Shown piece after piece: positions 3,393 through 61,379 of a stretch of DNA of 64,000 bases. How positions within the stretch are numbered: the first letter of the stretch is position 1; the number at the start of each line of letters is the position of its first letter. The stretch comes from a virus (Duplodnaviria > Caudoviricetes), in the IMG/VR virus record IMGVR_UViG_3300026549_000056, positions 35,930 through 99,929 of that record. One strand, written 5' to 3'. The translations under genes and the position numbers were made by a program. The notes under the pieces were generated by a model. The model saw only the letters and a program-made list of their open reading frames with translations. It had not been told where the DNA came from and did not search any database.

Positions 3393-5501
3393 TTAAATCT
3401 TCTGCTTGCATTGATATGCTGATATATTCATGCTAGACTCAACGTCAAGTGGCAACGAAATACTAGAAATCATAAACTAGCCATTAATTCCGGCAGCATC
3501 ATCGCGGACAGTTATTCTAGTATTTGGCTCAAGATAATAGATAGGAATCGCGCTAATTGTAATAGACTGATTCATATTCGTATATTGATATAACATATCA
3601 CAAATACGTTCATAACAAGAATTCTGACTGCCACCGATAGTCAATAGACTATAGATAGTGGAGTCAACCTGTACCCAATCTTGTCCTGCTGCATCACACT
3701 CTCTCTTTTCCTATTGTATATCTGCTTCATTTTGATTAATATCAATGAATACTAAATCTGGCACTTCCTGTTCAAATACACAATTAATCTAGTCCTATTG
3801 TACAACTACACCGCGGCGCCCAATATTATCAACACTGTATTCACCGACTTCAGCAGTATCATCAATCATATCAAGCCAAAAATCTATACCACTTGGATTT
3901 TCCTTTACACTATCATAGAATTGCTGTGTTTTTAAATTAAATAGCTTAGGCCATTCATTTAATAACTCAGCAAAATAATAAGGTTGGTCAGTACCAGTAT
4001 CTTGAGCTTCGATCCCCTCATAGTAGAGTTCCTATCTCCAATCTACTGTTGTGACCATACAATCGTCTTGTTTAACTTGATAATATCCTCTATCCTTGCT
4101 CCACCTATAAAATTGTCTATTATCTAAATTGCCAACAATATATAAAGTAGCTTCTGCTCCTGGATTAGGAAACTCAGATGTACTGTTGTAGGTGAACGTA
4201 AACTCGGCGCCCGCCCTTGTAATTCCATAATTGTCCTCGTAAAAATTCACATAGTGTTCTTGTCCTATTTCAGGTTTATGGTCAATAGCAAGGTGATAGC
4301 GAACAGGTATTTCAGTCTCACCATCTGCGCTTTTTCTTACACCCCATACCATATAATCGTTTTTGACATTACTATATGCAGGGGCATTTGTAACAGCACT
4401 AATTAACTTAGTTCCTTCAAAAGTGTAGACTGACTTACCACTTGAAAAGTCAACATCATAACTAGGACTTTCATTTAATTTATTCATTACTGTTGTGGTA
4501 TAAGTAGTATTTAGATAGTTTTTGATCTCTTGAAAATGAAAATTGCCATAGACATCATAAAAATATTCAAAATTACCTAATACAGCAATAATTTTATCAA
4601 GCACGCTTGTGACTGTATCTCCAGGATTGCATGTTAATTCTCCTGGATAGACAAAATCGGTGAGAACAAAACCTATATCATCACCATATTCAAAAGTGAC
4701 TATATCTGATTCATCCTGACCAGTGGCGGCGGCCGCGTTAAGTGCTTCGGTTTGATCTAGGAAGAACCGACGTGTTGTAACTGTTCCCCCTGTCGTCTCT
4801 AAGTAATAGATAGGATTACTACCAGTATATTTCATAACTTGTTTAATTTTATCATCAATATCTTCGATGACAATCTTCGCCGCGTCCTCCGCCCCAAAGT
4901 GATTAACAAGCTAGAAAATAATCTGACTAATTAAAGGCTTCTAAATATCGCCATTACTATCTTCTTTTTCTGAGAAAGTGACTGAGGCAGGAATGACTCC
5001 ACCTGCATCTCCATTTAATAAGCACATTTTATCTTTTAGCGAGATAGAAATAGTTACACCTTGTTGCACTTGATGTGAAATACTTGGATCAAAGATTACA
5101 AATATTCCAAGTGGAAACCATATAATATCTCCATACAACTCTTTATAATTGACATAATGATGAGTAATCTCGTGAGTCTTCTCATCTCTTGTATCATACA
5201 TATAAGTAGGCACAGTATTTCTAAAACCGATCTCTAGTTTTACTTTTCTATTGATAGACAAATCCTGGTCAATATGGCTAAGATCATTCTCCTTCTATTC
5301 TGCGAACATAGTAAAACTTGCAGTTCTACGCACAGAAGAAGTACCATCTAGGGTAAGCGAACCAGATATAGCTTTCCCTTGTATTTCTGATACAGCTTCC
5401 TCAGTCCAAGATAAAACAGTTAGACGAACAAACTGTTCTTTTAATCTAAGTTCGTCTAACTGTTTGAGGAAATACTGATCCTTTAAAAAATCATAGGTCA
5501 T
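3393..5501 (-). CDS. Putative tail/baseplate hub-like protein (702 aa, TAG read-through)
   Basis: ORF fragments 5295-5501, 4941-5261 and 4032-4835 share one frame and are joined by TAG. TAA at 3393. C-terminal IPIYYLEPNTRITVRD resembles phage tail proteins. Confidence 0.75.
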
Positions 5502-5516
5502 AATCTCCTCCTATCA

Positions 5517-60009: not shown

Positions 60010-60201
60010 ATGAAAACAATTAAATGTAAATTCTATGGTAATGGATACAATCCCGAGACAGGTGAGAATGACATTCCAGGATGCTGCACGGTATATAACT
60101 GTGCAGTGCCTTGTGAAGTTAATCCTGAACGCATTAAAGAGTGCGAGAGAAGAACAGAAGACGAATTAATTGCAAAAGAGTATGATTTGGAGGATTATTA
60201 A
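60010..60201 (+). CDS. Small Cys-containing hypothetical protein (63 aa)
   Basis: ORF coupled to the helicase start. Confidence 0.5.
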   Translation: MKTIKCKFYGNGYNPETGENDIPGCCTVYNCAVPCEVNPERIKECERRTEDELIAKEYDLEDY

Positions 60202-61379
60202 TGCTAACGCAAAAGCAGGAGTTAGCGCTCCAAGCAATCGTTGAAAAATATCAAAATCATGAGAAATATGTTGTAATTGGTGGCTATGCTGGTAGTGGTA
60301 AGAGTTACCTCGTGAAATTTGCGATCGCCGCCCTAGAAAAATATGGCATTCATGAAGATAAAGTCTGTTATGCAGCCTATACTGGAAAAGCTTGCCAAGT
60401 TTTACTTTCAAAAGGAAATAAAAATGTTTCTACGCTACATAAATTGATGTATGAAAGTATCCCCAAGCCAGATGGAACATTTTTCAGAAGAAAGAAAGCC
60501 TCACTCGGATACGATGTGATTGTTGCTGATGAATGCTCTATGATACCAAAACCGCTTATGGAGAATCTGCTATCGTATCCAGTATTTGTTATTTTTTTAG
60601 GAGATCCTGGACAGCTTCCCCCCGTAGATAAAGATGCAGATAACCATCTCCTTGATCACCCTGATGTCTTCTTAGATCAAATTATGCGGCAGGCACTTGA
60701 TAGTGAAATCATCCAGCTCAGTATGAAGATACGCCATCTTGAACCTATTACATATTATCAGGGTAAAGATGTTATTGTTCTTCCTAAAAAACAATTAAAC
60801 ACAGGGCATTTGTTGTGGGCAGATCAAATCTTGTGCGCGACTAACGCCACAAGGACAACTATTAATACACAAATGCGAGATCTTTTAGGACATAAGGGGC
60901 GGCCGCAGGATGGAGATAAAGTAATTTGTAGCAGAAACTATTGGGATAATATTGCTGTTAATGAGGATCCATTAGTAAATGGTACTATTGGTTTTCTCAA
61001 AAATACATATGAAACAAAACAGCACTATCCTAAGTATCTTTATCCAAAACAAGATGTTCGTGTACTTGGAGGAGAATTTATTTCAGACACAGGAGCAGAT
61101 TTTGGTAATCTTAATTTTGATGAAGATATGATTTTAACAGGCGAACCATCCGTAGATTGGAAAAGCGCTTATAAGATTAGTAAAAATGCTAGATATAGAG
61201 GAACACTCCCTTATGAATTTTTATATGGATATGCAATTACGACTCATCGTGCACAAGGTAGTGAATTCCCTAAAGTTCTTATTATTGAAGAAAAGTTTCC
61301 TTTCGACGAAGAAGAACATGCTCGATGGTTATACACAGCAGTAACGAGAGGCAGCAAAAAGGTGGTGCTAGTGAGGTGA
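60201..61379 (+). CDS. RecD/Dda-like SF1B helicase (392 aa)
   Basis: GYAGSGKS, DECSM, GDPGQLPP, IMRQ, YAITTHRAQGSEF and LYTAVTR motifs. Confidence 0.9.
   Translation: MLTQKQELALQAIVEKYQNHEKYVVIGGYAGSGKSYLVKFAIAALEKYGIHEDKVCYAAYTGKACQVLLSKGNKNVSTLHKLMYESIPKPDGTFFRRKKASLGYDVIVADECSMIPKPLMENLLSYPVFVIFLGDPGQLPPVDKDADNHLLDHPDVFLDQIMRQALDSEIIQLSMKIRHLEPITYYQGKDVIVLPKKQLNTGHLLWADQILCATNATRTTINTQMRDLLGHKGRPQDGDKVICSRNYWDNIAVNEDPLVNGTIGFLKNTYETKQHYPKYLYPKQDVRVLGGEFISDTGADFGNLNFDEDMILTGEPSVDWKSAYKISKNARYRGTLPYEFLYGYAITTHRAQGSEFPKVLIIEEKFPFDEEEHARWLYTAVTRGSKKVVLVR

Follow-up and report, generated by a model that had tools for sequence, protein, structure and literature searches.

The palindromic octamer GCGGCCGC is found 18 times in the 64,000-nucleotide stretch of tailed-phage DNA analysed here (the window) and 28 times in the whole 99.9-kb record, where about 0.13 copies are expected, which amounts to one site per 3.6 kb and to an approximately 215-fold excess over base composition. 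The excess is specific for the octamer, acts at the level of the DNA, is restricted to one clade of phages and has come about by repeated independent gains. For thirty years cyanobacteria have been known to carry highly iterated palindromes, for which there is no agreed function. We interpret GCGGCCGC as a palindrome of the same type as cyanobacterial HIP1, GCGATCGC (Xu, Lawrence & Durand 2018, PMC5861425; Elhai 2015, PMC4390886), that is, as our best guess, as a selected word read by a dimeric protein of phage or host, and would give this reading a probability of roughly 0.4. A clade of TAG-recoded Clostridia phages would then accumulate and replenish the octamer genome-wide and pay for it in amino-acid changes, a symmetric DNA-reading protein, be it of phage or host, would recognise it, selection would concern how many sites there are, or how densely they lie, rather than where precisely they lie, and the octamer would be superimposed on an older, family-wide excess of the half-site GCGG/CCGC. 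Both the existence of a protein that recognises the octamer and a benefit from carrying it are what we infer from the observations below.

Distribution of the octamer

A preliminary description of this DNA had counted 18 exact copies in the window, and every one of its coordinates could be verified. The genome is TAG-recoded, since taking TAG as sense lifts gene coverage from 75% to 90%, and the reading frames of the sites were therefore checked with TAG as a sense codon:

4729..4736: gene 3393-5501 (-), frame 0, ..NAAAAT..
11217..11224: gene 9182-13438 (-), frame 0, ..GAAAP..; relatives have a gap or different residues at the orthologous place
17546..17553: gene 13573-21777 (-), 2734 aa, frame 0, ..IAAAAQ..
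24210..24217: intergenic under both genetic codes tried
26390..26397: gene 26172-26795 (-), frame 2, ..VRPL..; also in G001; outgroups AGA CCT
26964..26971: gene 26816-27886 (-), frame 0, ..TAAAAG..; gapped, variable segment
28831..28838: gene 28794-29372 (-), frame 0, ..EAAAAP..; residues unrelated in relatives
30378..30385: structural gene 29450-30484 (-), frame 0, ..NAAAL..; relatives FSA, FEA, YSD or YAD
32587..32594: gene 32475-34133 (-), frame 0, ..NAAAAG..
34469..34476: gene 34220-34576 (-), frame 1, ..SGRP..; peptide kept in relatives (TGRP/TGHP) with AT-richer codons
39399..39406: small ORF of ambiguous strand, either 39219-39461 (+), frame 0, ..EAAAAK.., or 39328-39519 (-), frame 2
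40013..40020: endolysin gene 39854-40936 (+), frame 0, ..RAAAD..
51098..51105: gene 50741-51676 (+) with C-terminal GIY-YIG domain, frame 0
52501..52508: winged-helix gene 52384-52707 (+), frame 0, ..GAAAL..; GCGGCCAC in the near-identical strain L001
54398..54405: Sak4-like gene 53767-54765 (+), frame 1, ..CGGRF..; AGSRF with AT-richer codons in every relative
55338..55345: gene 54868-55389 (+), frame 2, ..VRPP..; common to L003 and G002
56295..56302: DnaB gene 55389-56921 (+), frame 0, ..HAAAV..; sister phages GCGGCAGC/GCGGCGGC, outgroups AAE/AAK with AT-rich codons
60899..60906: SF1 helicase gene 60201-61379 (+), frame 2, ..GRPQ..; octamer also here in G002/L012 in another frame, outgroups GGAGATCCT

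The GC content is indeed about one third (32-39% along the window, 36.7% in the whole record), and the claim that fewer than one copy would be expected in the window agrees with a dinucleotide-preserving shuffle, which gives 0.06 copies and never more than one. The six one-mismatch variants named earlier (13444, 17648, 21811, 22106, 42649 and 58377) are all present and belong to a total of 43 such sites in the window, so that the two kinds of site, exact and variant, add up to 61 where 2.4 are expected. Likewise the octamer is, as had been stated, read in several frames and also found between genes, since it occurs in three frames, on both strands and in intergenic DNA including the site at 24210. 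Among the 25 genic sites of the whole record 19-20 are read as Ala-Ala-Ala, 2 as G/S-G-R and 4 as R-P, while the 3 intergenic sites fall in the spacer DNA, which makes up about 10 kb of the record at 33% GC, and the density is equal in spacers and genes. The excess furthermore outlasts codon-aware null models, under which it had been considered that it might vanish: the 25 sites of coding DNA compare with 2.5±1.4 in a synonymous shuffle, with 0.36 when the order of codons is shuffled and with 10.0±1.9 (maximum 16) when a synonymous shuffle also preserves dinucleotide context, and the word is thus about 10-fold over the amino-acid- and codon-preserving null.

The further analogy with Chi, KOPS and parS-type motifs is not supported, since GCGGCCGC is palindromic, GCGGC is as frequent as GCCGC in each of the eight bins in three genomes, which leaves no polarity, nearest-neighbour spacing is random-like (CV 0.77-0.88), which gives no sign of selection toward even coverage, and the flanks are unconserved past ±3 nt. 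A parS-type centromere, which would have few clustered copies of a longer palindrome and a ParB gene close by, does not fit 28 dispersed 8-bp sites in unconserved flanks. Small mobile repeats (REP, MITE, GC clusters) were rejected as well, because the flanks are random past ±3 nt and orthologous codons are replaced at unchanged length.

Relatives, gains and the possibility of a neutral drive

The trait is clade-specific and restricted to the closest relatives of the phage. There are 19 sites in G001, 36 in G002 and 18 in G003 and none in the complete outgroups G004 and G005; expressed as DnaB identity, relatives at 74% or above have 18-36 sites each, whereas the complete relatives at 63% and 50% are free of them. 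The majority of sites were gained in single lineages, and independent gains have occurred repeatedly: at most sites the sister genomes retain the outgroup-like AT-rich state, only in G001 has GAKEI of DnaB become GAAAI, and between G000 and G002 the frame of the helicase site differs. Codon alignments show 1 of 6-16 sites shared against a background of 5%, and in the 60-75% identity band of blastn-alignable DNA sharing was expected for 13.5 of 161 sites and observed for 34, which, the pairs being non-independent, is a weak sign of site retention. Between strains 1.8% apart one site has been gained and one lost, and when contigs from four independent runs were compared with positions 22001-42000, none of the 40 differences listed (there are 280 more) fell in a site. 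The gut siphophage phAss-1 (OQ749652; Babkin et al. 2023, PMC10607447), whose host is predicted in Clostridia, resembles the present phage in its TAG recoding, its genome size of about 135 kb and a structural protein of 48% identity, but has only 2 octamers in its first 50 kb even though GCGGC is 3.6-fold enriched; the paper describing it makes no mention of GCGGCCGC, and we found no report of an excess of this word in phages in the literature searched.

That selection appears to act on the DNA, as the preliminary description had put it, is borne out insofar as the force falls on DNA and not on protein or codon usage. Alanine tripeptides encoded with A/T wobble bases are about as frequent as expected (9 vs 6.0). 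Of those encoded with G/C wobble bases, the three clade genomes have 39 (0.4 expected), 31 (0.7) and 38 (0.4), as against 0 and 4 in the outgroups; the surplus of alanine triplets is five- to seven-fold, and the codons of the surplus alanine runs end almost only in G/C. Many gains furthermore require 4-6 of the 8 bases to change and cost the protein a conserved stretch, as where AAA takes the place of AKE in DnaB and CGG that of AGS in the Sak4-like protein. The DNA thus drives the protein, and amino acids are altered to alanine runs to keep GCGGCCGC. A force on the DNA that can remodel the proteome of a virus matters when gut and rumen phages are annotated and their evolution is modelled.

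The observations that most sites are lineage-specific gains with low positional conservation, that sites turn over between near-identical strains and that they are equally dense in genes and spacers could also be explained by a neutral drive, in which sequence-targeted, biased repair or gene conversion within the infected cell turns near-cognate G/C-rich sequence into GCGGCCGC without benefit to the phage. Such a drive would give the same pattern of continual replenishment, it fits the one-mismatch variants and further G/C-only words that surround the octamer, and a model of this kind, a methylation-dependent mismatch-repair ratchet, has already been proposed for HIP1 (Elhai, PMC4390886). Furthermore the lysis cassette changes where the trait appears, as if the phage had switched hosts. 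We nevertheless consider a neutral drive somewhat less probable than a selected word, since the many gains that need 4-6 changes and replace conserved residues are difficult to reconcile with it, since one-mismatch neighbours of the octamer show neither depletion nor an excess of C-to-T changes, and since HIP1 sites are conserved above control motifs, which has been held against pure repair bias in that system (Xu et al. 2018, PMC5861425). The enzymes of the ratchet were likewise not found in the phages: neither this record nor the complete relative G001 has a match to C5 (PF00145) or N4/N6 (PF01555) methylases, Vsr has none in this record, and searches of the record and four or five relatives with PF00145, PF01555, PF03852 and PF01702 (methylase, Vsr, TGT/DpdA) returned nothing. 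The earlier suggestion of a methylation signal finds no support in the same result.

If the drive were borne by the host it should also mark the host chromosome. From its relatives the phage family may be judged to infect Firmicutes, and the best genome match of the endolysin is an uncultured Lachnospiraceae MAG (58% identity), a match that indicates the host family only and in whose genome 58 octamers stand against 57 of the reversed control. Among 301 genomes of this likely host family, which may not include the true host, the ratio of GCGGCCGC to the reversed control is nowhere near the factor of the phage, so that the possibility raised beforehand that the host shows the same bias found no example (0/301). 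AT-rich Lachnospiraceae samples of 20 kb moreover have few G/C-only runs and no excess of GCGG/CCGC.

As to the reader envisaged under a selected, protein-read word, the two winged-helix proteins proposed as binders (50409-50681 and 52384-52707) are real (MarR, HTH_27), but orthologs of each exist in relatives that lack sites altogether, and nothing therefore connects them to the octamer. Fourteen genes of the record are matched in G001 or G002 and have no match in the two outgroups; they comprise the endolysin, a holin, an AAA ATPase, a BclA-like protein and domainless small ORFs, with no evident DNA reader among them.

The octamer, its sub-words and Chi

The excess belongs to the octamer itself and not to its sub-words. 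A matched control, GCCGCGGC, which shares its composition, di- and trinucleotides, Ala-Ala-Ala coding and null expectation, is found 0, 0 and 2 times in three genomes (null 2.4, 1.2 and 1.9), where GCGGCCGC is found 25, 18 and 35 times, and CCGCGCGG, in which the two tetramers of the octamer abut in opposite order, occurs 0, 1 and 1 times. Avoidance of CGCG or CCGCGG is not the reason for the absent control, as both are at or above null. Of the 16 palindromic 8-mers consisting of G/C only, GCGGCCGC alone is enriched (28/19/36 in three genomes), the others numbering 0-5, and in this record GCGGCCG is followed by C in 28 of 30 cases while CGGCCG lies outside the octamer in only 6 of 34.

The octamer could nonetheless be a by-product, namely the commonest overlap of G/C-only islands or of GCSGC (GCGGC/GCCGC) or GCGG/CCGC words. 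All-G/C runs of at least 8 nt number 100 against about 20 expected, other G/C-only words such as GCGGCGGC, GCCGCCGC and GCGCCCGC are enriched too, which makes the octamer the sharpest peak of a wider tendency and not the sole signal, GCGGC/GCCGC is 2-3 times above the codon null, and among 4-mers GCGG/CCGC shows the strongest excess throughout the family, relatives without GCGGCCGC not excepted. A Markov model of maximal order (order 6) even derives the octamer from its 7-mers, but this fit is circular because nearly all GCGGCCG 7-mers sit within GCGGCCGC, and a fourth-order model, in which the pentamer excess is included, expects 6.7, 7.3 and 16 sites where 28, 19 and 36 are observed. The matched controls show likewise that the enriched pentamer alone falls short of the octamer, and the outgroups have the tetramer excess with 0 octamers, all of which renders a by-product improbable. 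An origin of GCSGC in avoidance of GCWGC was also rejected, as Ala-Ala codon pairs such as GCTGCT and GCAGCT are common.

The family-wide tetramer, whose excess extends to either strand, to every frame and to spacers, further raises the notion that GCGG-type words mimic the host AddAB/RecBCD sequence and shield linear phage DNA, with a palindrome serving both directions. Known Chi sequences of Firmicutes do contain GCGG (AGCGG in B. subtilis, GAAGCGG in S. aureus), they are like the phage word short, dispersed and enriched beyond coding needs, and the phage family belongs, judging by its relatives, with Firmicute hosts. Chi is however asymmetric and set in one orientation, whereas GCGGCCGC is palindromic and without polarity along the genome, and we know of no Chi that is palindromic or consists of 8 nt of pure G/C. 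In addition the flank preferred by GCGG is T (TGCGG) and not A, no excess of the octamer was seen in the 301 genomes of the candidate host family, nor one of GCGG/CCGC in its AT-rich samples, the phage carries recombination genes of its own (a Sak4-like annealase, a RecJ-like nuclease and an SF1 helicase), and the octamer is not explained by tetramer content alone. A Chi-like protection is for these reasons distinctly improbable. Finally, GCGGCCGC is often used as a linker when libraries are constructed, but NotI linkers or adaptors left in the assembly are refuted as its source by sites that stand in frame within intact genes and unique flanks, that recur at orthologous places in independent contigs and that differ in relatives from other samples, and by the presence of the same DNA in runs of at least 10 separate studies, the phage being common in cattle rumen samples.

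The statement that phages usually avoid palindromes applies to this genome too, where ordinary restriction-type palindromes are depleted (ATCGAT 1 vs 31, CTGCAG 3 vs 32, AGTACT 2 vs 24, CCGG 42 vs 82, and TCGA also). Enrichment of GCGGCCGC hence opposes the usual pressure, and with its opposite sign the word does not fall in the class of restriction-site avoidance.

Likeness to HIP1

The comparison with HIP1 made in the preliminary description is apt, both words being palindromic octamers. Their G/C arms are the same and only the central two bases differ (GCG-AT-CGC vs GCG-GC-CGC), each is two orders of magnitude above base composition, and each occurs in all frames and in intergenic DNA, forces amino-acid changes and has a halo of one-mismatch variants. 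Of the features that define the HIP class, GCGGCCGC shows over-representation in the range of 15- to 300-fold, occurrence in all coding frames and in non-coding DNA, and an excess that resides in the octamer and not in sub-words, whereas the orphan methylases, which in the case of HIP1 read inner sub-sites (Elhai 2015, PMC4390886), were found neither in this record nor in G001. HIP1 furthermore belongs to cellular chromosomes and not to a virus, its sites are conserved, while GCGGCCGC has weak positional conservation and a lower density, and it has a periodic spacing at 10-90 kb, a scale to be seen against phage genomes of only 100-137 kb.

A narrower form of the reading as a selected word is that the virus lineage maintains a HIP-like word of its own, with two GCGG half-sites, which is bound or cut by an unrecognised dimeric phage protein. 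We put this forward tentatively; such a protein might for instance start recombination-dependent replication, organise packaged DNA or mark phage DNA. If true, the phage would be the first small tractable system (about 135 kb and tens of sites) in which to find the function of a highly iterated palindrome. Occurrence of the octamer in a phage clade without a phage methylase detaches iterated palindromes both from the biology of cyanobacteria and from the methylase model, and it narrows the search for a function to about 170 genes; a comparable octamer has here arisen recently in one phage clade, with parallel gains and with site-free sister clades as natural controls. Iterated words are indeed able to change between lineages, since exceptional cyanobacteria use alternative HIP words such as GGGATCCC (PMC5861425). 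A similar change of word is seen in the phage family, where the in-group has GCGGCCGC and the outgroups have words of the TGCGGAAA type, enrichment of GCGGAAA-type words being confined to the outgroups.

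Excess of the palindrome over codon-aware expectations

The preliminary description had counted 18 exact copies of the palindromic octamer GCGGCCGC in the window, and all 18 are indeed located exactly where it had placed them, against 0.06 expected and a maximum of 1 under a dinucleotide-preserving shuffle. The whole 99,929-bp record (36.7% GC) holds 28 copies. In the window, exact copies and one-mismatch variants together come to 61, where 2.4 would be expected, and among them are all six variants singled out previously. With genes called using TAG as a sense codon, three of the record's 28 sites fall between genes and 25 within them, the genic ones being read as Ala-Ala-Ala (19-20), R-P (4) or G/S-G-R (2).

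Copies of GCGGCCGC in the coding DNA of the record under three null models
Synonymous shuffle within genes: expected 2.5 ± 1.4 (maximum 7), observed 25
Synonymous shuffle keeping neighbouring bases, hence all dinucleotides: expected 10.0 ± 1.9 (maximum 16), observed 25
Codon-order shuffle: expected 0.36, observed 25

Since all three expectations lie far below 25, the excess does not vanish under codon-aware nulls, and it is without explanation in proteins or codons. Furthermore, the record encodes 70 Ala-Ala-Ala tripeptides where 9.8 are expected from its alanine content, and the tripeptides were classed by the wobble bases of their first two codons.

Ala-Ala-Ala tripeptides by wobble bases of codons 1 and 2 (observed against expected)
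G000, the record studied: A/T-A/T 9 against 6.0; G/C-G/C 39 against 0.4
G001, relative with sites: A/T-A/T 11 against 8.4; G/C-G/C 31 against 0.7
G002, relative with sites: A/T-A/T 4 against 7.6; G/C-G/C 38 against 0.4
G004, outgroup: A/T-A/T 10 against 5.4; G/C-G/C 0 against 0.2
G005, outgroup: A/T-A/T 11 against 7.2; G/C-G/C 4 against 0.3

The extra alanine runs are thus a consequence of G/C-only words in the DNA, and the direction of cause is from DNA word to protein. The excess is genuine and the force behind it is at the DNA level, as had been proposed, a proposal that both the codon-aware nulls and the wobble classes bear out. An artefact origin of the sites is excluded. The gyrB-gyrA-ligA block (window 41545-50251, 8.7 kb) has no octamer in the record, and its relative G001 has one in gyrB and one in gyrA, each at a pre-existing KAAAARK or SAAAAR peptide; octamers seem to enter conserved genes only at already existing alanine runs.

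Half-sites, gain and loss across the family

The tetramer GCGG/CCGC ranks first in every genome examined (z 10 to 18, synonymous null), also in two octamer-free outgroups, and its enrichment extends to all three frames, both strands and the spacers. When the 136 tetramers are ranked by a Markov measure, it takes place 1 or 2 in relatives with DnaB identities as low as 63% and in the complete outgroup G005 (50%), and 3rd to 5th in other loci at 50%; the excess is gone in a clade at 38%. Among longer words, those enriched in the outgroups belong to the TGCGGAAA or ATTTCCGC type, and those enriched in the in-group are GCGGCCGC and GCGGCGGC. Both octamer-free outgroups (G004 and G005, loci L049-L063) have iterated asymmetric words of their own, TGCGGAAA and ATTTCCGC, which share the GCGG core and occur at about 3-8 times the codon null on both strands. 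The octamer itself is exactly GCGG followed by CCGC, an arrangement that would be the geometry expected of a dimer contacting two half-sites. We tentatively read GCGGCCGC as a selected recognition word for a dimeric protein reader, with a probability of about 0.4.

A DnaB search returned 34 related viral contigs, and the trait is common to relatives at 74-80% DnaB identity and absent at 63% or less. Whole-record counts are 19 in G001 (complete, 133.7 kb), 36 in G002, 18 in G003, a further relative, and 0 in each of the complete outgroups. When 49 groups of orthologs were aligned by codon, most sites proved private to a single genome and arose at varied residues, replaced without change of length (AKE to AAA in the DnaB of G001, AGS to CGG in Sak4 and, in a structural gene, FSA to AAA), the outgroup-like AT-rich state often being retained in sister genomes. 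In sister genomes the orthologous 8-mers agree with the octamer at 4.0-5.3 positions, in outgroups at 1.9-3.3. A helicase site differs in frame between two genomes and therefore has two origins. Sharing by position is close to background in the codon alignments and about 2.5-fold above it in blastn-alignable DNA, where genome pairs are not independent, and between strains 1.8% apart one site was lost and one gained. Private sites, parallel origins and strain turnover show a site number upheld through continual gain. That the octamers are the yield of a neutral repair or conversion drive is somewhat less likely than the recognition-word reading; a surplus of C-to-T products was not found among the one-mismatch variants, in which tolerance is limited to positions 3 and 6 (GCNGCCGC).

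The octamer and its smaller words

The octamers might also be a pure by-product of smaller words, namely overlaps of the GCSGC pentamer or G/C-only islands, and indeed all-G/C runs of at least 8 nt (100 against about 20 expected) and GCGGC/GCCGC (2-3 times above the codon null) are in genuine excess. However, of the 16 all-G/C palindromic octamers GCGGCCGC alone is enriched (28, 19 and 36 copies in three genomes, the others 0-5). The control GCCGCGGC equals it in base, dinucleotide and trinucleotide content, is likewise a palindrome coding for Ala-Ala-Ala, and likewise contains the GCSGC pentamer and the GCGG/CCGC tetramer twice each. The synonymous null expects 2.4, 1.2 and 1.9 copies of this control and 2.5, 1.3 and 2.3 of GCGGCCGC, whereas 0, 0 and 2 are observed against 25, 18 and 35. 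Avoidance was rejected as the cause of this difference, since CCGCGG and CGCG, sub-words of GCCGCGGC, are not depleted. CCGCGCGG, in which the same two tetramers abut in reversed order, has 0, 1 and 1 copies, and a fourth-order Markov model that already includes the pentamer excess expects only 6.7, 7.3 and 16 octamers. Given the matched controls and this shortfall, the octamers are not accepted as mere GCSGC overlaps or island by-products, an origin we regard as improbable. In the record, C follows GCGGCCG in 28 of 30 cases, and only 6 of 34 CGGCCG lie outside the octamer. G/C in the flanks is confined to the three bases beside it.

A Chi-like role is more improbable still; no polarity of GCGGC and GCCGC was seen along the genomes, and the variation in inter-site spacing (CV 0.77-0.88) is within the random range.

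Candidate readers, host and occurrence

By analogy, the closest known phenomenon is HIP1, the highly iterated palindrome of cyanobacteria, a comparison made previously and supported by the closeness of the words, since GCGATCGC and GCGGCCGC differ only at the centre. The phage word differs, however, in sitting in a virus, in lacking a phage methylase and in its weak positional conservation. Searches of the record and of four or five relatives turned up neither a C5 or N4/N6 methylase gene nor a gene for Vsr or TGT. The two winged-helix proteins put forward as binders do exist (MarR and HTH_27), but their candidacy is weakened by orthologs in site-free outgroups.

Clade-private genes include an endolysin and a holin, which form a lysis cassette (39507-40936) found in G000 and G001 and absent from the outgroups. 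The ELLD endolysin has a weak, sub-threshold SH3_3 match; its C-terminal, wall-binding part is 52% identical to a Dorea phage endolysin, and for the catalytic part a similar one is encoded by a Lachnospiraceae MAG. These resemblances, and the absence of the cassette from the outgroups, suggest a Lachnospiraceae-type host and a change of host when the clade arose. In 301 Lachnospiraceae genomes the octamer follows the reversed control word and none comes near the phage excess, so that the host bias raised as an objection is not seen in the likely host family. In 10-20 kb samples of AT-rich Lachnospiraceae, GCGG/CCGC is likewise not in excess and runs of G/C alone are few.

The window is the final 64 kb of the record, which is 64% complete (CheckV) and encodes GyrB, GyrA, NAD-dependent ligase, DnaB, a RecJ-like nuclease, an SF1 helicase, a PhoH-PIN protein, a Sak4-like annealase, a GIY-YIG protein and the PHP domain of a polymerase. 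Its DnaB is nearest to helicases of Firmicutes-infecting phages. If TAG is treated as a sense codon, genes cover 90% of the sequence instead of 75%, their mean length grows from 459 to 710 nt, and long structural genes (e.g. 3393-5501, 9182-13438 and 13573-21777) are unbroken; phAss-1, a published relative, is a gut siphophage of 136 kb in which TAG is recoded to Gln and whose predicted host is in Clostridia (PMC10607447). DNA nearly identical to 51001-61000 and 22001-42000 (sharing at least 89% of the 31-mers sampled) occurs in bovine gut runs from at least 10 separate studies, and six metatranscriptome runs contain it as well; the phage is therefore common and active in the cattle rumen.

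Restriction-type avoidances are strong and lineage-specific (record, G001, G002, G004 and G005): ATCGAT (1 against 31), CTGCAG (3 against 32), AGTACT (2 against 24), CCGG and TCGA are depleted in the record, and GATC in G002, G004 and G005 (z -9 to -11) and not in the record. A 160-aa ORF (47213-47695), flanked by gyrA and the ligase gene, corresponds to an SF1 (RecD/Dda-like) helicase reduced to its N-terminal AAA_30/AAA_19 part; a full-length helicase of this type lies 13 kb downstream (60201-61379). The 311-aa product of 50741-51676 has a GIY-YIG nuclease domain at its C-terminus only (residues 218-305), and the gene, whose ortholog length varies among relatives, contains an internal TAG codon and one octamer.
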